Positions 21,207 through 47,271 are shown, numbered from the stretch's first letter. The stretch: 64,000 nt of DNA from an uncultured Chlamydiales bacterium (GCA_963699155.1 OY969414.1:1163757-1227756); one strand, 5' to 3'. The notes: generated from the sequence alone by a model not told the origin. A program made the numbers and translations.

Positions 21207-21518
21207 ATGGAAGAAGGTGGTCAAATCAAACGATGGACCGCGGCACGTAAGATTGAAGTTGTCTTACGTCTATTAAAAGGAGAGTCCATCGATAAACTAA
21301 GTCGAGAACTCGGTGTAGAGGCTTATTTAATCGAAGAATGGCATTCAAAAGCAATTCAGGGCATGGAAGTGGGATTAAAAATGCGTTCCGAAGACCCTGT
21401 TCAACATGAATTAGACCATGCTAAGAAACGCCTGGGAGAGCTCATGATGGAAAACGAGCTCTTGCAGATAAAGGCCAACAAAGCACCGGGTTTTCGTATG
21501 GGGAGGTCCAAGAAATGA
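21207..21518 (+). CDS. IS3-family OrfA (HTH)
   Basis: RWTAARKIEVVLRLLKGES..LSRELGV; stop overlaps the orfB start. Confidence 0.85.
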   Translation: MEEGGQIKRWTAARKIEVVLRLLKGESIDKLSRELGVEAYLIEEWHSKAIQGMEVGLKMRSEDPVQHELDHAKKRLGELMMENELLQIKANKAPGFRMGRSKK

Positions 21519-22552
21519 GCGAGAAGATCTCTCCTTCAACCCATCTTAAATATGGTGTAGAATTAGTTTGTACAGTGTGGAAGTTTCCTCGCTCATCTTT
21601 CTATCATAATAGAAAGCGGCCATATAAACCTAAGGGGCTTCGAGGAAAAAAGCCGACCCTCTCAGACAATGATCTATTGGAGGCCATCAAAAAAGACATA
21701 TCCGAAAGCCACTTTCAAGGAGAAGGACATCGAAAAATACATGCTCGATTAAAACGCTTCAAGAAACTAAATATTGGGCGGAATCGAGTTTTGAAGCTAA
21801 TGAGAGAGCATAAAATGCTCTCTCCGTATCGCGTTGAACAGGGAAAAGAACGCCTACATGATGGACGCATTACAACAGACCGCCCCAATGAAATGTGGGG
21901 TACAGATGCCGCTAAGATTTTCACCCTCGAAGATGGGTGGGTGTGGTTTTTCGGAGTAATTGAACATTGGAATGCTGAATGTCTAGGGTGGCATGTCACA
22001 AAGAAAGGAAGTCGATTTGCTGCAATAGAAGCCTTAAATAAGGCTGTTGAGGTTGTTTTTAGCAAAACATCCTCTAATGTGGCTCGTGGGGTCAGTTTAC
22101 GAGTAGATCATGGCTCTTAATTTATGTCAGAAGGCTTTATTAACCAAACACGGTACTGGGGCATAAGTATAAGCAAGGGCTTTGTGAAGGAGCCTGAAAC
22201 CAACGGGGTGATAGAAAGGTTTCACAGAACATTTAAGGAGCAGATTGTACACGGTAGGCATTATCATGGCCTAGAAGACTTTAGGAAGGCTGTAGCAGAG
22301 TTCATTAAGTCGTACAATGAACACTGGCTTTTAGAAAAGCTAGATTATCACTCCCCTCTGGAAGCCAGGGAGTTATATTCCAAAGAACACCCTTCTGAAC
22401 AAATTTTATCGGCGTTAGCTGAGGTTGGAGAGGGAGCACGGCTACTTTGTTCTGGCAAGGATATGATAGCAAAAACTGAGAATTTTAGAATAATTTTAAA
22501 GCGACGGAAGAAATTTACGCAAATTTGTGTCCAAAGAAATGGTGGCGATACA
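21515..22552 (+). pseudogene. IS3-family OrfB DDE transposase with in-frame TAA at 22118-22120
   Basis: PNEMWGTD, VDHGS*F, PETNGVIERFHRTFKEQ. Confidence 0.85.
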
Positions 22553-22599
22553 CACTCAGCATCGTGGGTACATTTCATGATGCGAATACGATTAAAATT

Positions 22600-23010
22600 T
22601 GCAGCCTTTAAGACTTTGCTTATGAAGGCAGCTTTTCCTAGATTATACCCTGTGAAAGGGGAATTATTTTTTCATATGAAGATTTTTCTTGCAAAAGTTT
22701 ACCTTTTAGCTCTGCATACTCATTAAGTATTCAGGGTGGTTTGCAAATAGTCTCTGAAAAGAAGGTTGAGTTCAATTTCAGGGTGCCCCTTCTTGTATAT
22801 GTGAAGGTTAACATCTATGCCCTCAGAACGATTAAAATAAAATCGCATAGGAATATTGTACTTTCCCTTATATGTGAATCCCAAACTTTCGAGGTAGAAT
22901 TGCCATTTAGGATTGCCAACAACCCTTATCATGTCAATGACTCGTTTAGCAGAAAGACCCGGCCGGAGTGAGCCGATGTGATGAATGGCCCAACAATTCG
23001 ATCCTAGAGC
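22600..23010 (-). pseudogene. GrpB/UPF0157-like remnant
   Basis: IHHIGS..SAK.VID, VNLHIY and LLFRDYL fragments in broken frames. Confidence 0.6.
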
Positions 23011-24228: not shown

Positions 24229-25068
24229 TTATTCGCAAGAGTCAGTTTTATCTTTGTAATAGGGGAGGGCGATAAGAGCATTTGATAGTGCCCAGCCTTG
24301 TCCTCTTATCCACATTTCATCGTCGACTTGTAGAGCAGAGCGGAAGATAGCTCGTGTGTAGGAGGGTAAAAGGTTCCATGCGATGATGAGATCAGAAGCG
24401 GGGTCACCGATACCCAGAATGCCAAAATCAATCACCGCACTAAGATGACCATTCACTTGGAGAAGGTTGCCTGGCGAGAGATCGCCATGTATCCAGACAG
24501 GAGGCTTTGACCACTCAGGCGCCCTTAAAGCGTTTTCCCAGATCTGTGTAACTAACGGTACATCAACCATTCCCTCTAATTTTTCTAAAGCCTGCTGAGT
24601 TTCAAGGTCTTTTTCTATTAAAGGCACACCTCGATTGGAACGGGGACCATTGGATAGATTTATGCTGCGCATAGCCCGAATAAAAACAGCCAGTTCATGT
24701 GCCAGTGCTATTGGATTTTGAGGAGGAGCCCAACACGATTGTTTCCCTGCGAGCCAACAATAGATCGACCATGGGTAAGGATATTCGTTTGTAGGTTGAC
24801 CTTTAGCAAGTGGGATAGGAATTGAAGTAGGTAGAAAAGGGGCTATTTTGGGCAGCCATAAGTATTCCTTATCCACATTTTCTACAGCCCAACCAATCTT
24901 TGGCAATCGTATGACCATCTCGTTGCCAAGCTTGTAAAGTGCATGGTCTGTACCTGCAGAAAGGACGGGTTTAAGCTCTAAGCTCGCCCATTCGGGAAAT
25001 TGTTCTCTGATGAGGTTTTGTATAAGGGGCTGATCGATGTGGAATTCATCAGCGTGCATTTTAGACAT
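24229..25068 (-). CDS. Aminoglycoside phosphotransferase (APH) family protein, 3' end probably frameshifted
   Basis: SAGTDHALYKLG, WIHGDLSPGNLL, VIDFG. Confidence 0.85.
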   Translation of the reverse strand: MSKMHADEFHIDQPLIQNLIREQFPEWASLELKPVLSAGTDHALYKLGNEMVIRLPKIGWAVENVDKEYLWLPKIAPFLPTSIPIPLAKGQPTNEYPYPWSIYCWLAGKQSCWAPPQNPIALAHELAVFIRAMRSINLSNGPRSNRGVPLIEKDLETQQALEKLEGMVDVPLVTQIWENALRAPEWSKPPVWIHGDLSPGNLLQVNGHLSAVIDFGILGIGDPASDLIIAWNLLPSYTRAIFRSALQVDDEMWIRGQGWALSNALIALPYYKDKTDSCE

Positions 25069-28783: not shown

Positions 28784-28875
28784 GGGATTATCTCCAATTG
28801 AGTTAGCAGTTTACGAGTCTTATTGGAGAAATCCAAGGCAAAATAAATTTTACCTATGAAAGTAGTTATCTTTCT

Positions 28876-29112
28876 TCATTCGGGCATCAAATCTTTTGGA
28901 GAACATTCCAAAGCACTTGCCAAGGCAACGATATTCTCAAGCGCAATATTCCGTTCTCCTCTTTCAACCGATCCTACATAAGTGGGGTGCAAGTTGGCTT
29001 TTTCAGCCAATTCTTCTTGAGTTATACCCATTTCGAATCGTCGCATCCTTACTTTTAACCCAAATGCACGGCGAATAGGGGTTTTCTTTCTATTGTGTGG
29101 CTCTTTACCCAT
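28876..29112 (-). CDS. XRE-family HTH regulator (C-protein-like)
   Basis: FGLKVR..R..ITQEELAEKANLHPTYVGSVERGERNI. Confidence 0.9.
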   Translation of the reverse strand: MGKEPHNRKKTPIRRAFGLKVRMRRFEMGITQEELAEKANLHPTYVGSVERGERNIALENIVALASALECSPKDLMPE

Positions 29113-29255
29113 AGTATTTCCAAATAGACTCAGGCTAAGAGTTTTGATCAGCTCAATACACAGACTATGGGTCCGAAAAAATGATTATGAGTACAGAACA
29201 ATTGCTGAAATAGCTAATATCCTCGCTTTCAAAAACTACGAGCAGGAGGCACTGC

Positions 29256-29621
29256 ATGAAAGAAGACATTGTTGAAAAATTGTTAGAGTACTTGCAAAAC
29301 ACGCAAGATTTTGTATTGGAACAGGTTCCTCAAGTTATTCAGCAGGCATTAAGATATGAGAAAATCTCAGCCTATATGGTGGCGATTATCATGTCTGCGT
29401 TGCTTTTAGCAGCCGCTATAATTTTCTGTTATTTTTGGAAGAACCCTTCTTTGGATGTCCATGGCTGTCGTAAAATTTCCTCAGTCATGGGTATGTACAT
29501 ACCAGGAGCTATATCTGCTATTGTTTTTATTCAACTTTGCGTTTCAATAGATAGATTGATAGAAATTTATATAGCTCCAAAATACTTTTTGATTCAGTTA
29601 TTTATGAATATGAAAAATTGA
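29256..29621 (+). CDS. Two-TM hypothetical membrane protein
   Basis: GGAGG RBS; two hydrophobic segments; 18 nt upstream of the RAMP-like gene start. Confidence 0.7.
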   Translation: MKEDIVEKLLEYLQNTQDFVLEQVPQVIQQALRYEKISAYMVAIIMSALLLAAAIIFCYFWKNPSLDVHGCRKISSVMGMYIPGAISAIVFIQLCVSIDRLIEIYIAPKYFLIQLFMNMKN

Positions 29622-29639
29622 TATTTGGGACAATCGATT

Positions 29640-30248
29640 ATGTTATTAAAAGCAAAAATTTCAATCTCTGGGAAACGTCCCATCTTATTCAACCGATTTT
29701 CAGTTGATTCTATCTCTCTTGAGAAGCAAGAACGCACAGGAGTAGCAGGGAACAATCCAGAAGAGTGGAAACGGACTGTACTCAAGACAAATGAAAATCA
29801 GCTTTATGTAGAGTCTACCTATATTTTCGGTTGCATTAGGGATGGTGGCAAGCACCTCAAATTAGGAAGGGGCACTTTGCAAGCAAAAATTGCATCGACA
29901 CTTGTTGTGCTCGATGAGATCATTCTTTTGGATAGATTTCTTCCCAGGGAGGAGGATCTTACACAGGACAAAAATGCTCTCGTCTACCTGGATGTCAGGG
30001 GAGTTAAAAATCCCTCAAGTAAAGGCCGGAATATACGCTACCGTGTTGCCTGCTCCCCTGGATGGAAAGCCGTTTTTCAAATTGAATGGGAAAATACGGT
30101 CATTTCAAGAAACGAAATGCATTCTTCGTTAGATAGCGCTGGATCATTTGTTGGGTTGGGAGATGGGCGAGCTATTGGTTTTGGCCGTTTTGAGGTGGAA
30201 CAGTTTGATATTTTAGAAGAAGCACCCAAGCAGAAAAAGAAGTCATAA
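29640..30248 (+). CDS. Stand-alone Cas7/RAMP-like RNA-binding protein (202 aa)
   Basis: N-terminal strand AKISISGKRPIL; LYVESTYIFGCIR (like the PxxxxKGxxR helix of RAMPs); thumb-like DVRGVKNPSSKGRNIRYR; C-terminal G-rich loop GLGDGRAIGFGRFEV. Confidence 0.7.
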   Translation: MLLKAKISISGKRPILFNRFSVDSISLEKQERTGVAGNNPEEWKRTVLKTNENQLYVESTYIFGCIRDGGKHLKLGRGTLQAKIASTLVVLDEIILLDRFLPREEDLTQDKNALVYLDVRGVKNPSSKGRNIRYRVACSPGWKAVFQIEWENTVISRNEMHSSLDSAGSFVGLGDGRAIGFGRFEVEQFDILEEAPKQKKKS

Positions 30249-30251
30249 TGC

Positions 30252-30317
30252 GGTGGGGCATGGCATGGCTAGGCTTGTCAAGGCTTGGTGGTGGCGTGGT
30301 GGGGCAAGGCAAGGTTT
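30252..30317 (+). ncRNA. GGY-NN pentamer array, candidate guide RNA
   Basis: GGT-gg GGC-at GGC-at GGC-ta GGC-tt GTC-aa GGC-tt GGT-ggt GGC-gt GGT-gg GGC-aa GGC-aa GGT-tt; 13 units, intergenic, then T-rich. Confidence 0.75.
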
Positions 30318-30323
30318 TATTTT

Positions 30324-30614
30324 ATGCCCAAAAAGAGACAACCAAATGCAATTTGGCGTTTAAAGCGCGTCACAATTTTAAAGAGGGATGGGTATCGTTG
30401 TACTCATTGTGATGTTGTTGTGACTATTGAGACAGCGCACATTGATCATATTCAGTCAGGAAAGTTGGGGAGTAATCATAAGTCTAATTTGAGAACACTT
30501 TGTCGTCGATGCCATGTATTGCGGGCTGATCATCGGCATCGCGGAATGACAGCAAAGGCTCTTTGAGATGGAGTTATACCTCCAAATTGGCGTGAGCTTG
30601 TCTGGGAAGATTAA
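30324..30614 (+). CDS. HNH endonuclease with in-frame TGA at 30564-30566 near the C-terminus
   Basis: RDGYRCTHC..HIDHI..GSN..NLRTLCRRCH; frame continues DGVIPPNWRELVWED* after the TGA. Confidence 0.85.
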
Positions 30615-30640
30615 TAAAATTGTACCCATTTTCTGGTATT

Positions 30641-30853
30641 TTACAACTCTTTTTCTTTGTATTCTTCGGGGAATAAAACCTCCTCCTTGGATACCCTTCC
30701 TTCAGTAAATTCTTCAATTTTTTTTGCTAATTTGACGCTTGGGTTCTTTATTCCACTCAAAATATGTTGAAGATGCCCTTGAGAGATTCCAATTTTTTCA
30801 GCAAAGGCTTTTTTTGTTGTTTTGGTTCGAAAAAGGTATTCATCAAGCTTCAC
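30641..30853 (-). CDS. Cro-like HTH regulator
   Basis: GTG start with GGAG RBS; KKAFAEKIGISQGHLQHILSG..PSVKLAKKIE. Confidence 0.8.
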   Translation of the reverse strand: MKLDEYLFRTKTTKKAFAEKIGISQGHLQHILSGIKNPSVKLAKKIEEFTEGRVSKEEVLFPEEYKEKEL

Positions 30854-30888
30854 AATAGCTCCAGGGATTTTCCAACAATATATAAGGT

Positions 30889-30959
30889 TATCTTTTAGAT
30901 GAAAAGATGTATCTTTTGGTTTTGACCAAAAAGATGAATCTATGTATCTTTTAGATACA
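30889..30959. promoter_or_regulatory. Operator-like repeats in a divergent promoter
   Basis: TATCTTTTAGAT twice (30889, 30945); palindrome TGTATCT-TTT-AGATACA; ATCTTTTGGT/ACCAAAAAGAT inverted pair. Confidence 0.6.
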
Positions 30960-30979
30960 AAAGCATCAAAGGAGCACAT

Positions 30980-31765
30980 ATGTTGCAGAAAATCCAGTCA
31001 CAAACTCCAGAACTCTTGCAAGACATCCAAAATATGAGGAATCTGGCAGAAACACTTATGACAACAAAACATTATCAGCAACTTGGATCAGATGGGATTT
31101 TTGCTGTGATTCAAAAAGCAAAATCTTTGAACATTAATCCATTAGAAGCATTGAATGGAGGCTTGTACTACGTTCAAGGACGCGTAGAGATGAGTGCACA
31201 AATGATGAATCAAATGATTCGTGCACGTGGACATTCTATTCAAAAAGATTCAAAATCTACAAAACTACTTTGCATTTTGCATGGGAAACGCATTGATAAT
31301 AGCGATGCTTGGACTGTCAGCTTCGGCATCGAAGACGCCCAACGTGCTGGTATCTATCGTCAAAACAGTCCATGGACAAAATTCCCGGAAGCGATGTGTT
31401 TCGCGCGCGCCCTTTCAATGCTAGCAAGGCAACTATTTCCCGATGTGATTCAGGGATGCTATGTTGAAGGAGAAATTGGTGACTCGCTAAATGAGGGACC
31501 GATGGTGACAACTGAGACGCAAACCATCACTCGAGAACAATCTCAAAAACTTGAAATGCTTATTGGAAATGATGAGGAATATAAGAAAAAATTACTCACA
31601 TTCTTTAAGATTGAGAGTCTCGAGCAACTTCATATCTCTCAGTGGAACCGTATCGTTATGGCAACACAAAAACACGCAGAAGTACAACAAAAGAAAATAG
31701 CAATTCAGCCACTCTCAAACGCTGGTCAAAGCGAAGAAGAATGTCTACAAGCAATGGAGGCTTAG
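30980..31765 (+). CDS. RecT/Red-beta-like single-strand annealing protein
   Basis: NPLEALNGGLYYVQG, DAQRAG, PWTKFPEAM..ARA..LFPDV; adjacent to a YqaJ exonuclease gene. Confidence 0.75.
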   Translation: MLQKIQSQTPELLQDIQNMRNLAETLMTTKHYQQLGSDGIFAVIQKAKSLNINPLEALNGGLYYVQGRVEMSAQMMNQMIRARGHSIQKDSKSTKLLCILHGKRIDNSDAWTVSFGIEDAQRAGIYRQNSPWTKFPEAMCFARALSMLARQLFPDVIQGCYVEGEIGDSLNEGPMVTTETQTITREQSQKLEMLIGNDEEYKKKLLTFFKIESLEQLHISQWNRIVMATQKHAEVQQKKIAIQPLSNAGQSEEECLQAMEA

Positions 31766-32845: not shown

Positions 32846-33844
32846 ATGGAACTAAAAGCCAATAATCATTTAGCTCCTATTGTAGTAATCACAGGAGCCT
32901 CTGCAGGTGTAGGGAGGGCCACGGCCCTTCGATTTGCTAAAAGCGGAGCTAAAATGGGGTTAATAGCTCGAGATGGCGAGCGTCTCAAAAATCTGGAAAA
33001 GGAAATCACAAATCTAGGATCTGAAGCCCTCTCGATTCCAATGGATGTAACCAATGAAGACGATATGTTCCGCGCTGCGGATGAGGTCGAAGAAAAGCTG
33101 GGACCGATTGACATTTGGATCAATAACGCTATGGTTACGATTGATTCGGAATTTATAAATATAGAGCCAAAGAATACGCCCGCGTCACTGATGTGTGTTA
33201 CCACGGTTTTGTCTATGGCACAATGGCTGCTCTTTCTAAGATGTATCCTCGAAATAAAGGGGTGATTGTCCTCGTCGGTTCGGCTTTGGCATACAGAGGG
33301 ATTCCACTCCAATCGGCTTATTGCGGAGCTAAACATGCGATACAAGGATTTAGTGAATCTTTGCGCAGTGAACTCATCCATAATAAAAAAAATATCTTCA
33401 TCACCATGGTTCAAATGCCCGCGCTAAATACTCCTCAATTCCATGTGGTGCAAAACAAATAGACCTAACAAACCAAAACCCGTGGCGCCCATTTTTCAAC
33501 CGGAAATTGCAGCTGAAGCGATTTTTTGGTCGGCGCACCATCCCAAAAAACGGGAAATTATCGTAGGAGCGAGGAATACCGTAATCGTATGGGGGAATAA
33601 ATTTTTCCCTGGATTTGGAGATTGGTATCTGGCTAAAACATGCTATAAATCTCAAATGACAAAAGAGCCGGTTGAAGAGAATCGGAAAATAAATCTTTGG
33701 ACCACCGTAAAAGGACCTTTTAAGTCTCATGGAACATTTGATAAAGAAGCTGTAAATAAGAGTTTGCAACTCTATTTCGTCATGCATCCATGGATCTTCC
33801 TGTTTGATTTTAGTTTTAATTTTAATAGGGGCATAGTATTTTAA
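32846..33844 (+). pseudogene. SDR oxidoreductase, frameshifted
   Basis: TGASAGVG, YCGAK and PIFQPE spread over three frames. Confidence 0.8.
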
Positions 33845-34061: not shown

Positions 34062-36468
34062 TTAAGAGCCGATGCGGACAATGAAATCTACACCTTCCCA
34101 ATGCTTCGCTTCCGGCCAGTGAAAAGTGAATTTCACTTCATTTCCAGTAGAAAGTTGCGTCGTCATGAGATCAGCGCTATGAATCCCTAATCCTACATCA
34201 TGTGTTTTTACATCATGAGTTGTTTGCCAATTATCAGCGCTCCAATGAATGATTGCAGGCGTCAATGTTTCGATACGGAGTATTTTGCCGGGATAGATGA
34301 AGCGAATCTTTTGATTAAACCTCCATATCATCCTTGGAGATACCGTTTTATCAATCAGATAACGTTTCACGGTTTGAGGAGGCATATCGAAGACTTTCCC
34401 GTCATGTAATGAACGTCGCAATTTGAGGTATTCTGCATGGGCCCAGACAAGAGGCATAGCCGAACCGGAAGGTTTACCCAAATACAATCCCTTTTCTGGT
34501 ATATCCTGCTTATCCCAGACTTGTTCTGAAATCAGCCCATTTTCTCCTGCGAAAGATTCCATGGCGTTAAGCAGCTTCTTTGCATTTTCGACCTGACCTG
34601 CTGCCAATTCGTAATGGGCTCGTTCACCTGTCAACAAGGGCCAACCACGGCCTATTCCTGTCCCATCAAATGGCGAGCCATCTTCATGTTCCCCATAGCC
34701 ATCATCATTGTAGCGATGCCATGTAGGCCCGCAAGGGGTCTCTATTTTGAGCAATGCATCTATCACTTTTACTGTATCGCGCATGCGTGGGTCATCCGCA
34801 GCGCGCAAACCAAAGCGTACTAGAGCAAGTGCATCGGGGCTTATCAGATGTTTAGTAAGCATAGTATCTTCAGCAGCCGAAACGTTTGGGATATGTACAT
34901 CCTTTTGTAAACGGGATACGCCTCCTGCTTTTTGCGTCGGAACAATCCGTACATAAAACCCTTGGACGTTAAATTTACGGCACCAGTCTGTTCCAGAGAC
35001 GTACATCCACTGATCGATGGATGTATTCCATACATCTGCGACCTCACGCAAGTAATTTGCAATCGATGTTTCCTGATTCAAATCGGCAAGATCAGCTGCT
35101 GCCAAGAGTGCAGCAATTTCTGCTCCAACAGTGAATTGTGAATATCCTGGATCTTCTTCCCAACGATCTTCTGGGCTAACAGGTCCATTGCGGACTAAAT
35201 AGCCAGCCGCATTTCGTACCATCGGCCAAAACTGAGCTGCGCTTTCCCTCGTCAATGCCCTTTCACGCAAAGCAAAATCAACCAAAAGAATGGGCAGGGC
35301 AGTTTCATCCATTTGGATTCCAGTCCAATTGGGCGAGCCATCCACCCACATATTCTGGGGCCAATACCCTTCAGCATGTTGAGTTGACTGCAAGAAAGAA
35401 AGCATGCGACGGACATCCTCATGCGCACCGGCAGCTAGCAAGGCGCCTGCCGTTTCCACCATGTCGCGGGACCAAATAAGGTGGTAACCACCCAGGTCCT
35501 TATCTCCCTTACTAAATCCCCAAGGTATGGATAGGCTAGCTATCAGGCCCCCCGGAGGTGTTTGGGATTCATGAGTGCGTATCACAGAGAGACTCTTTCG
35601 AGAAAGGGTGTTAGGAAGGGGATCTATCTCTTTCAACGCAGTATGCCCATTTATCCAATCCTGCCACCCGGCAAGGTAGGCTTGCTTTGCCGGATCAAAA
35701 CCAGCCTTAAGGCTGGCGATGGCATTGTGAGCGGCTTCTTCAGGATTCTTTGCCAAACCCAAGAGCCAATAGGAAATTACCACCCGATTTTGCAAGATCG
35801 ATTTGAGCAGTGAGAGACACATTGCCCCTTTCAGCGCGCGAATATTCACAAGTCATTTGTTTGTGATCTCTTAAGTCATGCCATCCATCTGAGGGACCTA
35901 CGTAGCTAACAGATCGTTTTAGCCAGGGAACGGAACAGGCAAGAGCTAATGCACAGTCTTTTCTCTGAGCAAATAATAGCTGAGTATTCTCAAATTCAGC
36001 TAGCCAAGCGGTATTATCCTGACCTTGATTCTCCAGATGTGGTGAAAGTACGACGTAGATTTTATAATCTGGTAATTGCCCTTGAAGTGGGATAAATTGC
36101 GTCTGTTGTAACACAGTATCTCGCTGAGAGTCTGTCACAATCTGTTTTTCAATGCGGTACCGATGTTCATGGCAGGTATTGACTAAACTAAATGCTGGTA
36201 CGCCATCGGCCATCCAGTGCACTTGTGAATCAGTATTCCGTTTCTCTTCTGAAAAAAAATGGCTCCCATCTGTGGCGATTAATCCCATATCGCGAGTACA
36301 AGCTTGGTCAATACGGGGATAATAGATTTCATTGAAGATTCCATGGCTAAGTGTAAACCAAATATGACTCTTGTCGCTAAGGGCCGTTCCAACTCCTGTT
36401 TTAGCGCTAGAAGTCCAACGAGCAGGGACACCGGGACTGCCGGGGGCGAAATTGTTTGGTGTTGGCAT
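34062..36468 (-). pseudogene. GH15 glucoamylase/glucodextranase, frameshift near 35.77 kb
   Basis: WTSSAKTGVG, GGYHLIWSRD, DRWEE, SAMPLVWAHAEY. Confidence 0.85.
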
Positions 36469-36667
36469 GCTATATCCTTTTTGCATTTCCAATCTTTTCT
36501 ACATTTCTCTATTTAAAAAATAAATATCAAAATCATGTAGATACAGTTTGTCTCCACGTACCAGTTGGCTAAAATTAAAATAATAGTTACAGTCGTGTTA
36601 TCTTCGGTGAGTTGTTGTAAACATCTCATTCTTAATCAAGTTACTGATGTAATAGGCGTGGTCGAAC

Positions 36668-37870
36668 ATGAAACCAACTAGTCCTAGCATCCTGACAATC
36701 AATGGCGGTTCATCGAGCATTAAATTCGCGCTATTCGAAGCGAATAGCCCCCTGAATCGCATTCTGGGGGGCAGCATGGAGCAGATTGGACTGCCGGAAC
36801 CACCTTCGTGTGAAAGGGATCGAGCCAGGCGGATCACATTTCGCGACCTACTCGCTCAGAACCATACTGCAGCGGTAGATATCTTGATGGATTGGATTGA
36901 AGAGAGGTTCGGGAAAGATGCATTGACCGCAGTGGGACATCGCATGGTACATGGTGGAAAAATATATAAGCCGCAGCGAATTACTGAGGAAATGGTTGAA
37001 GAATTGCGTCAACTTCAGTCCTTTCGATCCTGAGCATCTGCCTGAAGAGATCCTTTTGATCGAGGCATTTCATCGTCGATTTCCTGACTTCCGCAAGTAG
37101 CGTGTTTTGACACAGCTTTTCATCATGATCTGCCACGGGTAGCTAAGTTGTTACCGATTCCACGCCGTTATGAAGCGCAGGGAGTGAGGCGGTATGGGTT
37201 TCACGGGTTATCCTATGAGTTTTTAATGGGAGAACTGGCCCGCTTGGCTGGAACAGAGGCAGCACAAGGCCGGGTCATCCTCGCCCATCTCGGCAATGGT
37301 GCGAGCCTAGCTGCGGTGCGACGGTGGCAAATCTATGGATACCAGCATGAGTTTCACTCCGACAGCCGGGGTGCCGATGAGTACACGTTCAGGAGATCTT
37401 GATCCGGACTAGTTTGGTATTTGGCACGCACGGAGGGATTCGATGCAAAACAATTCAATGAGATGGTTAATTTTCAGTCGGGACTGCTTGGTGTATCGGA
37501 GATTAGTTCCGATATGCGTGACTTGCTCGATCATGAAACTCAGGATATACGGGCAGCTGAAGCGGTCGCATTGTTTTGTTATCAGGTTAAGAAATGGATC
37601 GGTGCATTTGCAGCGGCGTTAGGTGGACTGGATACACTGGTATTTGCTGGTGGTATCGGGGAGAATGCACCTACGATTCGTTCCCGGATTTGCGAAGGTT
37701 TAGGATTTCTTGGAATCGAATTCGAAGAAAAACAAAATGCAGGCAAATGAAGGAGTTATTTCTACGGCAGCCGGCCAGAGTAACTGTCCGGGTCATACAT
37801 ACAGATGAAGAATGGATGATAGCACATACGGTCTGTCGCGTCCTTGGACTTAGAAGTCTTAACAAAGTGA
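36668..37870 (+). pseudogene. ackA: Acetate kinase, multiple frameshifts
   Basis: [43 protein letters not shown]. Confidence 0.9.
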
Positions 37871-37926
37871 AAAACATGATAATGAAGCATGCTGTAGAAA
37901 CTAGAAGTTGAAAAACTGGTAAGCCA

Positions 37927-40280
37927 TTGTCGCCCGATCTGCTGCAAAAAATGAATGCCTATTGGCGGGCTGCGAATTACCTTTCGGTCGGCCAGATTTA
38001 TCTCTATGACAATCCACTGCTGAAGGAGCCACTAAAATTATCTCATGTGAAGCCGCTAGTGGTTGGACACTGGGGCACAACACCGGGCCAGAATTTCATC
38101 TATGTGCATTTGAACCGGGTCATCAAGAAATATGACTTGAATATGTTCTACATCGCCGGTCCTGGCCACGGCGGCCCGGCATTAGTGGCGAAATACTTAT
38201 CTCGAAGGCACCTATAGTGAGATTTATCCGAACATCAGCCAGGATGAAGCGGGCTTAAAAAAACTGTTCACGCAATTTTCGTTTCCCGGTGGGATTTCCA
38301 GCCATGTTGCGCCGACAACACCAGGGTCGATTCACGAAGGGGGTGAGCTAGGGTATTCACTCAGCCATGCCTTTGGTGCTGCATTCGACAATCCCGATCT
38401 GATCGTCGCTTGTGTGATTGGCGATGGTGAAGCAGAAACTGGCCCTTTGGCGACCGCATGGCAATCCAATAAATTTCTCAATCCAATTACCGATGGAGCT
38501 GTGCTGCCGATCCTACACCTAAATGGTTACAAGATCAGCAATCCGACTATCTTGGCTCGCATCGAGCATGAGGAATTGGAACAATTTTTCCGAGGCTGCG
38601 GCTGGACGCCTTATTTTGTGGAAGGTGATGAACCGGAAGAGATGCATCAACTCATGGCCGGTACTTTGGAAAAAGTCATCGAGGAGATTCGGCAGATCCA
38701 AAGCAACGCACGCAACAAGAATGACACTACTCGGCCACGCTGGCCAATGATCGTCCTGAGATCACCAAAGGGTTGGACTGGGCCAAAAGTTAGTTGATGG
38801 TCTGCAAATTGAAGGGACATTCCGAGCACATCAAGTGCCGCTTCTGGTAGATGCCGAGCATCCCGATCATGTTCAAGCAGCTTGAAAGCTGGATGAAAAG
38901 CTACAAGGCAGAGGAACTATTCGATGAGAATGGGCAGGCTTATACCGGAATTAGCTGAGCTTGCGCCTAAGGGTGACCGGCGGATGGGCGCCAATCCTCA
39001 TGCCAATGGTGGTATTTTGCTGCGCGATCTGCGTAATGCCGGACTTTCACGATCACGCGGTGAATGTGCCGTCTCCTGGCGCTGTCATGGCTCAAGACAC
39101 GCTCGTGCTGGGCAAGTTCCTTCGTGATGTGGCCAAGCTGAATCAGGATCAACGTAATTTTCGTATTTTCGGTCCCGATGAGACACTCTCGAATCTTTTG
39201 GGTGCAGTCTTTGAAGTCACTAATCGTCAATGGGACGCTCGGGAAGTAAAAAATGATGAATTTCTCGCACCCGCAGGACAAGTGCTGGATTCGATGCTCA
39301 GCGAGCACCAGTGCGAGGGATGGCTAGAAGGATATTTGTTAACCGGGCGGCATGGGCTGTTTAACAGTTATGAAGCCTTCATTCGTATCGTCGATTCGAT
39401 GTTCAGCCAGCATGCCAAATGGCTGAAGGTAACATTGGAATTGCCCTGGCGCCGGAAGATCGCATCGTTGAACTACCTGCTTGCCTCTCACGTCTGGCAG
39501 CAGGATCACAATGGATTCACACACCAAGATCCCGGTTTCATTGACCACGTGATCAATAAAAAGGCCGATATCGTACGCGTTTATCTACCCCCCGATGCCA
39601 ATTGCCTACTCTCGGTCTTTGATCACTGCCTGCGCAGCCGACATTACGTCAATGTGGTGGTAGCCGGCAAACATGCTCTCCCTCAATGGTTGACTATGGA
39701 CGCTGCAATTGTCCATTGCACGGAAGGAATTGGCATCTGGCAATGGGCTAGCAATGACCAGAATGCTGAGCCAGACGTGGTGATGGGCTGCTGCGGAGAT
39801 ACTCCCACACTGGAGATCTTGGCTGCTGTTTCCATTCTCCGCCAGCATCTACCCGATCTGAAAATCCGGGTGATCAATGTCGTCGATCTGATGAAGTTGC
39901 AGTCTCAGAGCGAGCATCCGCATGGTCTAAGCGACAAGGATTACGATTCTCTATTCACCAAAGATAAGCACATCATCTTCGGCTTTCATGGATACCCATG
40001 GCTGATCCACCGATTGACCTACCGCCGGACCAACCGCAACCTCCATGTTCGTGGCTATAAAGAAGAGGGCACCATCACGACTCCCTTCGATTTGAGAGTG
40101 CAAAACGACCTGGATCGCTTTCATTTAGTGCAAGATGTGGTCGATCGCCTGCCCCATTTAGGTGGTAAGGGGGCTTATTTGAAGCAGATGATGCAAGACA
40201 AGCTCATCGAGCACAAGCACTATGTCGATAAGCACGGCCAGGACATGCCGGAAATTCGGAATTGGAAATGGAAGGGATGA
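37927..40280 (+). pseudogene. xfp: Phosphoketolase, multiple frameshifts
   Basis: [50 protein letters not shown]. Confidence 0.92.
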
Positions 40281-44360: not shown

Positions 44361-46145
44361 TTAGTGAGTGTGTTCGAATTTGTGTTCTTCAAACTGAAGT
44401 AAAGAAAGTAATAGCAATACTTGAAAAAGTCTATTCACAATAGACTCTGTTATTTCTTCTAATTCAATAAGACCATGGCAAACATTATTGCGTATGTTCC
44501 AGCCCAAGGGGCTAGTTAATAATAACTTGAAATAGGTAAGAAGGTTATCGTCAAAAGCATTTTTAAGTTCATCTTTTTCAAGGATAGCACCCAAAGTCAA
44601 AAGTTGAAAACCTCCATTCTGATCTAACCTGTAAGTTACTCACCCTGCAATTCCACAAGAGTTGGCAGTATGTGCTCGATTTGAGGAATCAGTATGTAAG
44701 CAGCAGAAAAAAAATCCTTGTTTAAGAAAAAATTCAAACCCTTTGCTAGCGCATTTTTCCTCTTAGAAATTTGAGAAATACGAAATAACTTTTTTGAAAA
44801 AAAATGATCTATAAGATCATCAACATGAACATTAAATGTTGATATGACATTTTTAAGAATGTCGTTCAAAAATACGGTCAATATTGCTATGTCCTGCGAC
44901 ATTTGCAACAGAACATGGCTATCTAAATCCTCAGCAATAGGCTTCACTCTTGCTAAAGTTCGGCCTTGTTTATCCTGCTTATTAATGCCAATAAGAAACG
45001 TCAATGGGTATTGCTTAAACAGCTCCTGAACGGTGTGCGCAGCTTGCTCTTTTTTGAGGAAGGAAACTTATAGCCATTGTCTCAAGGGCACTTGATAAAG
45101 ACCCCTTCACAAACTCCTCTGCATATTTTTGATATTCTGCAGCAGAAATAGTTGTTTTTGCCTCTACGATATGCAAATCTTCAGGAGGTAATTCTTGGAT
45201 AGCTCTCAAAATTTTCTGTTTGAAAGATTTACCTAAACCAAATCTTTGGAAAATATGCAAAGCTTCTCTCAGCCAAGCCTCCGCAACCATCGGTGATACT
45301 TTTTTTGCAGCAACTAATACTTCTTCTCCATATACGGATAAAACTTCTTCAATTTGCTGAGGTTGTCGAGGGATATGCTTATTTAAATAATAGTCGGCGA
45401 GCCTTTCGGCCGCTTGATGCAATCCAAAGATATTATTACTAGCGCTTTTCAAGCGCACAAATCTTTCTTTTAGTCGTTCAATAATAAGGTTAGTTTGTTC
45501 TGTGGAAAGTAATTTTGACACTTTTTTATCATCTACTAAAAGATCATAACTAAATCCCCAAGTTCCAAGTTGTTGATCTACAGCATACAAAGACTCAAAG
45601 TCGATGATTTTGTTGATCAAGGCTGTGATTCTTTGTATATCAGAGATTTGCATGGCAATATTTAAGCCTCTCGCAAGAGCAATCTTTCCTTCTACGGCGG
45701 GGAATTTAAAAGGTATAGCTCTTGAGCAAAGGGCAATTGTCTGATCGACTGCTTCTTGTGCAAATTTTACATCTGCTCCAGAGCCTGTGACTGATTTGGT
45801 GAGATCCCAAACTAAGTCAGAATATCTTAACCGTAGGGCAGGGTGTTGAGCATACTTGCATCGATCTTGCCAATATTCGAGAACCTCAGGTGTCAGAACC
45901 GAAATGGATGGATTTTCAAAAACGGAGCCATCATCATGTTTGCACCTGAAGTACGGACCATAGTAGTTATTTATACCCGCATTTTTGGCAAACAAAAATG
46001 CCAATGATTCAGCGCGGAATGCAAATTCCTCGTTGATTTTAGGTTGTTGTTCTGCTAACTGACGAAGTCTATCAGATATTTCAGCTTCACTGAATGGATC
46101 TGTTTTGGATTCATAATCCAAAAATATTGATTCTACACTTTTCAT
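44361..46145 (-). pseudogene. DUF4209-like protein with C-terminal HEPN motif, frameshifted
   Basis: ILIPQIE and GWNIRNNVCHG (RxxxxH); split into three ORFs. Confidence 0.7.
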
Positions 46146-46149
46146 AATT

Positions 46150-47271
46150 TTAGAAATGATCCCTATCTGAAGCATCCTCAGTTCTATGTTCTGTTAGTTT
46201 TGCTTCAATTTCAGCTGCGGTGGGTAATGTGCCCTCGAGTTCTTTAGGAAGGGTATCTAAAATGGTCACTTCATATTCAGAAACACCCATGGGCATTGTA
46301 CTTCGTTCTAAAGAGTATTCAACTTTTAAATCATTCTTTGTGCGGCAAATAATCATCCCTATCGATGGGTTATCTGAGGGATGTTTGATTTGTCGATCCA
46401 CTGCAGCGAGGTAAAAATTCAATTTCCCTGCATATTCTGGTTTGAAGTCAGTCGTTTTTAATTCTACTACACAAAAGCAGCGTAGCTTGATGTGGTAGAA
46501 AAGCATGTCTAAATAATAGTCATCTCCTGCGATCTCGATGTGATACTGTCTGCCAATGAAAGCGAATCCCTGTCCTAGTTCTAAAATCAACTTTTCTAAA
46601 TTATCGATAAGCCCACGCTCAAGTTCTTTTTCAACATAATCATTGGTGAGAGACAAAAACCCAAAATTATAGGGACTTTTTAAAATATCAATAGCTAAAC
46701 GAGAGTGGGGATCGGGTAGGCATGTCTTAAAGTTTGTAACGGCTTTTCCCTGTCTTTTGTAAAGATTTGATTTAATAGCCTCTTCTAATGCTCTTCCACT
46801 CCATCCCTTTTGCAGTACCTGATGGGCATACCAATTTCGAGTATCTGGATCCTTTAACTTCTCTATTAGCAGGATGTTATGCCACCATGGAATTTGTGCA
46901 AGCAGTGTCTGCACAAATTGCGGATCAGGGTAAATTTCGGCAAACTTGCGCATGTATTTTAAATTTCTAACTGAGAATCCAGAAATTCCCGGAAACTCGG
47001 TAGCTAAATCTTTAGCCATCCGGTCAATTATTTTTGCACCCCATCCCTCTTTATTCTGCTTTTCAAGAATAGATTTACCAATCGACCAATAGAGTTTTAC
47101 TAACTCGCTATTGACAGATAGGCTAGCACGCAATTGGGCTTCTAGGATTTTTTTCTTAATCTCTTCAAAAAAATCTTTGTAATTGATTGGGAGAAGTTGT
47201 GAAGAATTGGGCTCAGCAAAAAGATTTGTTGTCATAATATAATGGGTTTGTAAATCGAGGAATTTTTCCAT
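46150..47271 (-). CDS. YhcG/DUF1016 PD-(D/E)XK nuclease-domain protein
   Basis: LYWSIG, GFSVRNL, ELGQGFAFIGRQY, VVELK, GKLNFYL. Confidence 0.9.
   Translation of the reverse strand: MEKFLDLQTHYIMTTNLFAEPNSSQLLPINYKDFFEEIKKKILEAQLRASLSVNSELVKLYWSIGKSILEKQNKEGWGAKIIDRMAKDLATEFPGISGFSVRNLKYMRKFAEIYPDPQFVQTLLAQIPWWHNILLIEKLKDPDTRNWYAHQVLQKGWSGRALEEAIKSNLYKRQGKAVTNFKTCLPDPHSRLAIDILKSPYNFGFLSLTNDYVEKELERGLIDNLEKLILELGQGFAFIGRQYHIEIAGDDYYLDMLFYHIKLRCFCVVELKTTDFKPEYAGKLNFYLAAVDRQIKHPSDNPSIGMIICRTKNDLKVEYSLERSTMPMGVSEYEVTILDTLPKELEGTLPTAAEIEAKLTEHRTEDASDRDHF

Follow-up and report, generated by a model that had tools for sequence, protein, structure and literature searches.

The locus described here lies in a 64,000-nucleotide (nt) stretch of DNA (hereafter the window, whose positions are used throughout) from an uncultured Chlamydiales bacterium (GCA_963699155.1, OY969414.1:1163757-1227756), the genome of which is complete as a single contig of 2,399,326 bp. 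It comprises a gene for a RAMP-type protein (vipr), a run of pentamers, a gene for a small HNH nuclease and, on the opposite strand, a gene for an XRE-family helix-turn-helix (HTH) protein (Table 1). An earlier note, made from the sequence alone, had reported a 202-amino-acid (aa) open reading frame (ORF), an array that begins 3 nt after its stop codon and an HNH gene that begins 6 nt after the array: all three statements hold on the sequence. The evidence set out below leads us, with high confidence, to read the locus as a VIPR (Viral Interference Programmable Repeat) module composed of vipr, one guide RNA (vrRNA), an HNH accessory gene and a divergent XRE-type regulator.

Table 1. Position, strand and main attributes of the features at the locus.
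Feature	Position	Strand	Description
vipr	29640..30248	+	202-aa Vipr, ancestral-type Cas7-like RAMP; ATG 29640, TAA 30246-30248
vrRNA guide part (predicted)	30247..30302	+	11 units, NN = GC GG AT AT TA TT AA TT GG GT GG
vrRNA 3′ end (predicted)	30303..30323	+	GGCAA GGCAA GGTTT plus TATTTT; without target match
HNH accessory gene (vap-like)	30324..30566	+	80 codons, in-frame TGA 30564-30566; PF01844 E 1.5e-6
HNH C-terminal tail remnant	30567..30614	+	In-frame DGVIPPNWRELVWED and stop codon after the TGA
XRE-family HTH, 'control protein'-like	28876..29112	-	Divergent from vipr; Pfam HTH_3 E 7.4e-15; PADLOC control protein E 2.8e-18

Read from position 30252, the array consists of 13 units, each a GGY followed by a variable dinucleotide (NN): GGTGG, GGCAT, GGCAT, GGCTA, GGCTT, GTCAA, GGCTT, GGTGG, (T), GGCGT, GGTGG, GGCAA, GGCAA and GGTTT, the last ending at 30317. 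One unit is degenerate (GTC in GTCAA), and a single extra T at 30292 shifts the register after unit 8. An additional 5′ unit, AAT-GC (30247-30251), overlaps the vipr stop codon and was added from the target match described below. On neither strand does the window contain another period-5 GGY chain of at least 6 units. The array reaches a chain of 12, compared to a maximum of 7 when the window was shuffled 200 times and of no more than 8 when the 66-nt array segment was shuffled 20,000 times at matched composition. Because only three of each five bases repeat, the array was not called by Tandem Repeats Finder, which reported only a fragment of 11-nt period and 1.9 copies (30282-30302). Rfam gave no family at E≤1 over 28800-31200, and a scan for promoters and terminators returned counts at the level of shuffles, with no site defining the ends of the vrRNA.

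The C-terminal end of the Vipr ORF contains VGLGDGRAIGFGRFEVEQ and its final residues are VGLGDGRAIGFGRFEVEQFDILEEAPKQKKKS; the glycine loop (G-loop), at residues 172-184, is GLGDGRAIGFGRF. In an AF2 model of the protein (pLDDT 83.8, pTM 0.78) a beta-hairpin occupies the thumb position (residues 115-138). The top Foldseek matches of this model are Csm3/Cas7 chains (E 1e-7), and VIA-align gives Z 11.7 to type VII Cas7 and 11.1 to Csm3; among the best 50 matches listed, all are CRISPR effector-complex entries, with type VII Cas7 and Csm3 chains leading. The Cas7-like fold anticipated in the earlier note is thus recovered. In its available text, the VIPR preprint sets membership at a structural Z of at least 6 to Cas5, Cas6 or Cas7 (10.64898/2026.04.26.720920), a value that the model, at Z 11.7, exceeds.

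Sequence comparison is more specific. The best phmmer match of Vipr among PDB sequences is 36pp_D, 'SUSP1 Vipr protein' (E 1e-4, covering residues 59-188), and a family profile built from 32 family members (alignment A1) has 36pp_D as its only PDB match at E≤0.01 (E 4.8e-9, positions 7-190 against 5-190). The likeness to VIPR put forward in the note is confirmed. Pfam RAMPs stays below threshold (E 0.043) and the PHROGs match is to an unnamed family (phrog_4652, E 9e-12). In the part of the structural preprint available, the residues of SUSP1 Vipr that hold the GGY by cryo-EM are H17, R138, D177, W178 and R179 (10.64898/2026.04.26.720927). Of these, D177, R179 and R138 correspond to D175, R177 and R135 here, each invariant or nearly so across the family; in addition, K71 aligns with SUSP1 K82. 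The vipr frame is open at full length and retains all 34 invariant family positions of A1.

The Vipr family extends to 828 proteins (E≤1e-3) from Chlamydiota, Bacillota, Chloroflexota, Cyanobacteriota and other phyla, and relatives are encoded on 50 IMG/VR contigs. One relative, WP_013181753.1 of Waddlia chondrophila, has an identity of 78%. Closer to home, a search of 60 relatives of the bacterium (3 from its genus, 25 from its family and 32 from its order) did not find Vipr, and a search of metagenome contigs for near-identical loci gave only relatives of 43-58% identity. One protein, A0A0F9L9J6 (P0053), is none of the five seed proteins named in the Methods of the VIPR preprint.

Arrays recur beside vipr. 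Counting same-strand chains of at least 8 units from -200 to +1200 nt of vipr, an array was found in 56 of 75 related genome loci and in 16 of 31 metagenome loci, compared to no further plus-strand and two minus-strand chains elsewhere in the genome loci (948 kb) and two such arrays elsewhere in the metagenome loci (124 kb). In the 56 genome loci the array stands upstream of vipr (5), within 150 nt after vipr and followed by the HNH gene (24), or after the HNH gene (27). Across loci the GGY is constant and the NN varies. Two loci, L037 and L049, have identical NN in 11 guide units but differ at GGY positions in 8 of them: the constancy of NN while GGY drifts is a direct sign that selection acts on the NN code.

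The HNH gene is a regular neighbor as well. In 68 of 75 genome loci the gene immediately 3′ of vipr, in the same orientation, is a homolog of it, and one is present in 35 of 50 viral loci; the association of Vipr homologs with arrays and HNH genes that the earlier note had asked about is thus real. Most homologs are 95-100 aa long with the C-terminus ALKDGIIPPNWRELVWE; alignment A3 shows residues W89, R90 and W94 to be nearly invariant. The HNH of the window keeps the catalytic D-H, N...H and two Cys pairs, and the family profile covers positions 1-96 with one internal TGA, at a site where relatives carry Lys or Arg; the conserved tail thus removed is 16 residues long. A 5.8-kb contig from run X1 (about 98% identical, depth 2.5) has 31 differences in 1,435 nt around the locus, none of them in the array, and carries an arginine codon at the TGA site, so the truncation arose recently by a point change, or one of the two assemblies is in error. 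Just 3′ of the HNH remnant (window 30634-30645) the same contig has 597 other bases replacing 10.

Whether the HNH belongs to the module at all may be questioned. Phage DNA commonly carries small HNH genes, generic HNH endonucleases are the best PHROG matches of this one, and partnership with Vipr rests on gene order; the protein might thus be an independent homing or packaging endonuclease that merely neighbors vipr. We regard this as very improbable, given that the same family, with its own conserved tail, follows vipr at 68 of 75 loci, in several phyla and with all three array positions, and that the vipr-adjacent copy is the only one of its family in the genome. Nonetheless, the suggestion in the earlier note that the HNH is a recruited effector goes further than its basis, which is gene order (68 of 75), the HNH being truncated here. 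A complex prediction for Vipr and HNH (the L001 pair, alignments A2 and A3) scored 0.22 against a mark of 0.32 and carries no weight either way.

An XRE homolog is found just upstream of vipr on the opposite strand in 25 of the 75 loci, and the protein is a probable regulator of the module. Other neighbors are rarely shared: a homolog of the membrane ORF is present at one of the 75 loci, as is one of the HTH ORF and one of YqaJ, while RecT and the helicase have none.

If the array is a guide that is read with gaps, as the earlier note proposed, then its NN should spell a DNA sequence. For the target search the NN of the array were written as NNx, with a 1-nt skip, and run against IMG/VR. A 16-base core pattern matched 74 contigs, a group of which also matches one unit before and two units after the core. 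The resulting 22-base pattern (11 units) is matched at 22 of 22 NN bases in 23 contigs, compared to no match for each of the same-composition controls (reversed unit order; skips of 0, 2 and 3 nt). The extra T at 30292 leaves the 1-nt skip on the target unchanged. At all 23 sites the target lies on the strand opposite an ORF, about 16-42 codons in, where the ORF encodes SVPTPNFNYIIPA, and every skipped base falls at a codon wobble position. Synonymous changes would therefore leave the match intact. The computed match thus bears out the proposal of a guide for a gapped target.

The ORF opposite these sites encodes a major head protein (phrog_1357, E 1.5e-19), with a further match to Phage_capsid_4 that stays below cut-off (E 5e-4). 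Full-length capsid ORFs of 308-334 aa, stop to stop, are present in 13 of the 23 target contigs. In the other ten (L153, L155, L160-L164, L166, L167 and L169) the capsid frame is shorter (100-172 aa), with the N-terminal target peptide preserved; the short frames could reflect assembly errors, an insertion or another organization of the gene. The guide does not point back at its own genome: the best self-target there matches 21 of 28 NN bases, under the 80% mark. A capsid homolog was likewise not found in that genome (best tblastn E 0.34), nor any tblastx similarity to the target contigs.

These data also dispose of a more conservative reading, in which the RAMP is an orphan CRISPR Cas7 beside a chance G-rich spacer, and no RNA-guided module exists. 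The nearest solved folds in the fold library are indeed CRISPR Csm3/Cas7, and the Pfam RAMPs score of E 0.043 is below cut-off. However, the array statistics rule out chance, Vipr matches SUSP1 Vipr in sequence and no Cas7, and the guide-target match survives four controls. As the earlier note had stated for the window, there is no Cas1, Cas2, Cas5 or Cas6 among its 77 ORFs by PADLOC models, and a search for direct repeats of CRISPR type found no array; beyond the window, the whole genome (2.4 Mb, complete) likewise lacks a match to Cas1 (PF01867). We consider an orphan Cas7 hardly conceivable, and it is refuted by the co-occurrence of arrays with vipr and by the target match.

The end of the array behaves differently from its interior. 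Units 12-14 (AA, AA, TT) face AC, GA, AA or AG in the target, and are therefore not target-reading. In 60 related arrays the last three units carry 3.0-3.3 bits compared to 3.9 bits for interior units; the commonest pairs are AA, AT and AC in the second- and third-last units and AA, TT and AT in the last, and GGYAA GG followed by a T-run is a frequent ending. The terminal three units and the U-rich end probably act as a conserved 3′ handle, to judge from this conservation, and the terminal units are also the likely location of the ribosome-binding site of the HNH gene. If so, the last units would double as the ribosome-binding site of a nuclease gene, and assembly of the filament could set nuclease dosage.

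A second guide, shared by L037 and L049, provides a comparable case. Its 20-base pattern matched 113 IMG/VR contigs, of which 80 were examined. All 80 sites lie opposite an ORF of about 315 aa, at a position encoding FYGNFVTITNQ and in wobble register. The next upstream unit also matches at 80 of 80 sites, and the last two units mismatch. The ORF hit by this guide is homologous to the first capsid protein (30% identity, E 6e-41).

What phages are these? The target contigs measure up to about 40 kb, and none of 50,697 GenBank phage records contains a match to the capsid protein. Among 401 genomes of the phylum, capsid homologs are found in seven, all of the same order as the bacterium of the window. 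The guide of the window matches the homologous site of L318 at 18 of 22 bases. That of L037 agrees in 21 of 22 with a capsid gene that is interrupted by a single stop codon and lies near position 209,000 of a G201 contig, which is chromosomal (>200 kb). Two further capsid matches are on contigs of about phage size, which may therefore be phage genomes binned with a host.

Two targets of the L037 guide (L250 and L264) themselves encode a Vipr, 36-38% identical to that of the window (L368:1250-2400 and L370:1250-2400). These phage loci have several flanking arrays of GGA/NN pentamers, with a purine in place of Y, and no HNH by tblastn. Several of their arrays end in GG plus TTTTTATTT or a similar T-run, resembling the end of the array in the window, GGTTTTATTTT. 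Against the genome of the window, the eight GGA/NN guides of L368 and L370 match no better than unit-shuffled controls.

On these grounds we suggest tentatively that the guide, carried within a vipr-HNH messenger, is a spacer-like host link that connects a chlamydia-related bacterium to uncultured head-tail phages. If this is true, tailed phages of environmental chlamydiae are engaged in an arms race of which VIPR is a record. To our knowledge the phages of chlamydiae known so far are small Microviridae. A literature search on tailed phages of chlamydiae returned nothing relevant, and we make no claim on the published record.

By analogy with the work on SUSP1, Vipr protomers would polymerise on the repeat RNA of about 75 nt, one per pentamer, each burying the GGY and exposing the NN. 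Eleven NN pairs would then read a 32-bp DNA site as NNx, every third base being skipped, and by computation this code spells a site in the 5′ region of the capsid gene without mismatch. The bound complex would be expected to block expression of the capsid gene, and the HNH protein of intact relatives may cut the bound DNA. Since the HNH tail is lost here, the module of the window may be a silencer only, or may be decaying with its surroundings.

Several observations weigh against a VIPR module of this kind and deserve to be set together. First, the 23 target contigs are mutually related, and thus amount to about one independent match. Second, two GGY-contacting residues are unlike those of SUSP1: W178 is replaced by G176, and H17 by N18 (H in most relatives). 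Third, the HNH ATG follows the array after just 6 nt, which leaves no space for a structured 3′ tail or pseudoknot like that of type II, and folding of the array region is no better than that of shuffles (z -0.53). Such a tail may be absent from other types. The vrRNA of roughly 75 nt, with its ends and processing, is itself a prediction from DNA. Fourth, the HNH is truncated amid a neighborhood full of split genes, so the module may be inactive. Finally, both guides that were examined are antisense to the capsid message, which makes capsid mRNA a possible target.

The last point leads to an alternative in which the vrRNA-Vipr filament acts on capsid mRNA rather than on DNA. Both guides are complementary to the coding strand at all of their sites (23 of 23 and 80 of 80), and the structural preprint, as far as its text is available, describes Vipr-vrRNA as able to pair with single-stranded RNA (10.64898/2026.04.26.720927). 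Two guides on the same strand are, however, only a one-in-four coincidence, and the conserved partner is an HNH DNA nuclease. Moreover, the available text of the two preprints places natural targets on both strands and describes filaments on RNA as less complete (10.64898/2026.04.26.720920, 10.64898/2026.04.26.720927). Messenger targeting is thus improbable.

The fourth point requires a view of the surroundings. The module sits within a short, gene-poor, phage-like stretch that includes a helicase with HA domains, the XRE gene, a small membrane ORF, vipr, the HNH gene, an HTH gene, RecT and a YqaJ exonuclease, and in which phage structural genes were not found. The mobile element of the earlier note is thus a short remnant that lies among split genes. 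Split genes are present at 21207-22723, 32846-33462, 34062-36492 and 36668-40280 (an IS3-like transposase, an SDR gene, a glucodextranase gene, ack in three ORFs and the phosphoketolase gene xfp in three ORFs); they indicate that the region is decaying or that the assembly contains indel errors.

On these facts one may ask whether the locus is merely the decayed remnant of a former VIPR module, now neither nuclease nor silencer in this genome. The TGA removes the nearly invariant W89, R90 and W94 of the HNH; ack, xfp, SDR, glucodextranase and IS3 fragments lie in pieces on the flanks; there are no phage structural genes nearby; and Vipr is present in none of the 60 relatives searched. Yet vipr is full-length with its 34 invariant A1 positions kept, the guide matches extant phage sequences at 22 of 22 bases, and the array is unchanged in the 98%-identical contig despite 31 differences in 1,435 positions. 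Type II VIPR, moreover, silences without a nuclease, according to the available preprint text (10.64898/2026.04.26.720920). Complete decay is accordingly unlikely in our judgement, if by no means remote, and we retain the reading of the locus as a VIPR module.

Two further features of the window lie outside the module. About 14 kb downstream, on the minus strand (44364-47271), are PADLOC candidates PDC-S39, over three ORFs, and PDC-S02 (E 2.7e-147), the latter with a PD-(D/E)xK domain. Some 5 kb upstream, also on the minus strand (24232-25068), an ORF belongs to the APH phosphotransferases (PF01636, E 3.5e-29) and could be a resistance gene or an ordinary kinase.

Several things follow. A VIPR locus can be recognized by a reader of raw sequence alone, and even at this distance from the E. 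coli and Pseudomonas models the published code, with its 1-nt skip, leads to a natural target without mismatch. The HNH-linked clade has an anatomy of its own: an 11-unit guide with 2-3 conserved, non-reading units after it, an array that stands upstream of vipr, between vipr and the HNH gene or after the HNH gene, and an XRE-type regulator as a frequent fourth component. What the guide offers to chlamydial biology is a set of candidate phages. None of these points alters the kind of system.

Among known systems, class 1 CRISPR effectors are the nearest in fold. Vipr resembles type VII Cas7 (8z4j_F) and type III-A Csm3 (6ifk_E, 6xn3_F) with Z 11.1-11.7 over 160-169 residues, at an identity of 12-15%; in both cases the protein polymerises on a guide and a thumb flips bases at a fixed period. 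The period, however, is 6 nt on both guide and target for Cas7/Csm3, compared to 5 nt (RNA) and 3 nt (target) for Vipr, and the locus has no repeat-spacer array, no Cas1/Cas2 or Cas5/Cas6 and no large subunit.

TIGR-Tas systems are likewise non-CRISPR, repeat-encoded and phage-associated, and direct RNA-guided DNA targeting with optional nuclease domains, but their period is 18 nt and their Tas protein has a Nop domain and is not a RAMP. The Tas protein is unrelated to the Vipr found here. In the available part of a further paper TIGR-Tas is named alongside VIPR (10.64898/2026.10.21.760802).

As described in the available text of the VIPR preprint, Vipr is a RAMP of about 20 kDa, vrRNAs have 9-16 YNNGG units plus a 3′ tail, and the NN pairs read DNA with one skipped base between them, usually the codon wobble base (10.64898/2026.04.26.720920). 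The same text distinguishes seven VIPR types and six vap genes, with nucleases or helicases in types III-V. The structural companion describes the Vipr filament and triplex (10.64898/2026.04.26.720927); the parts available of a third and a fourth preprint concern phage-satellite competition and recovery of VIPR arrays by period-5 entropy, respectively. The locus shares with the type II system of Escherichia phage SUSP1 and of a Pseudomonas fulva prophage a Vipr that measures about 200 aa and combines an RRM core, a G-loop and a thumb, GGY/NN pentamers (13-14 here, 9-16 published), a 1-nt-skip code on wobble positions and the lack of a CRISPR array, cas genes and self-target. It differs in that the sequence similarity of the two Vipr proteins is remote, with W178 and H17 not retained; that there is a single guide rather than arrays of several; that this guide is intra-operonic, between the vipr stop and the HNH start codon, with no room or signal for a 3′ pseudoknot tail; and that the partner is an HNH protein rather than the DNA-binding Vap1.

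Types III-V provide the closer parallel, with a nuclease gene, an HNH Vap, a single vrRNA and a virus-matching guide. In the portion of the preprint available, HNH-domain Vaps are assigned to types II, III and VII (legend of Fig. S21), one-vrRNA systems exist, and guides of types III and V match IMG/VR viruses in 44 of 63 and 23 of 39 cases, respectively (10.64898/2026.04.26.720920). Types III and V are located in defence islands (10.64898/2026.04.26.720920), whereas the surroundings of the module here are a short phage-like remnant, RecT and YqaJ included, and its HNH gene carries a nonsense codon. Since HNH Vaps and virus-targeting nuclease types are already described, the view of the earlier note that coupling to an HNH would extend VIPR was overstated, and the claim to novelty on that point fails. 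The closest class is probably the nuclease-linked, single-guide, virus-targeting VIPR of type III, an assignment that, as a last point of caution, is drawn from the preprint text only. VIPR and its coupling to HNH are thus already known; what the locus adds is a new host lineage, a target and the anatomy of a clade.

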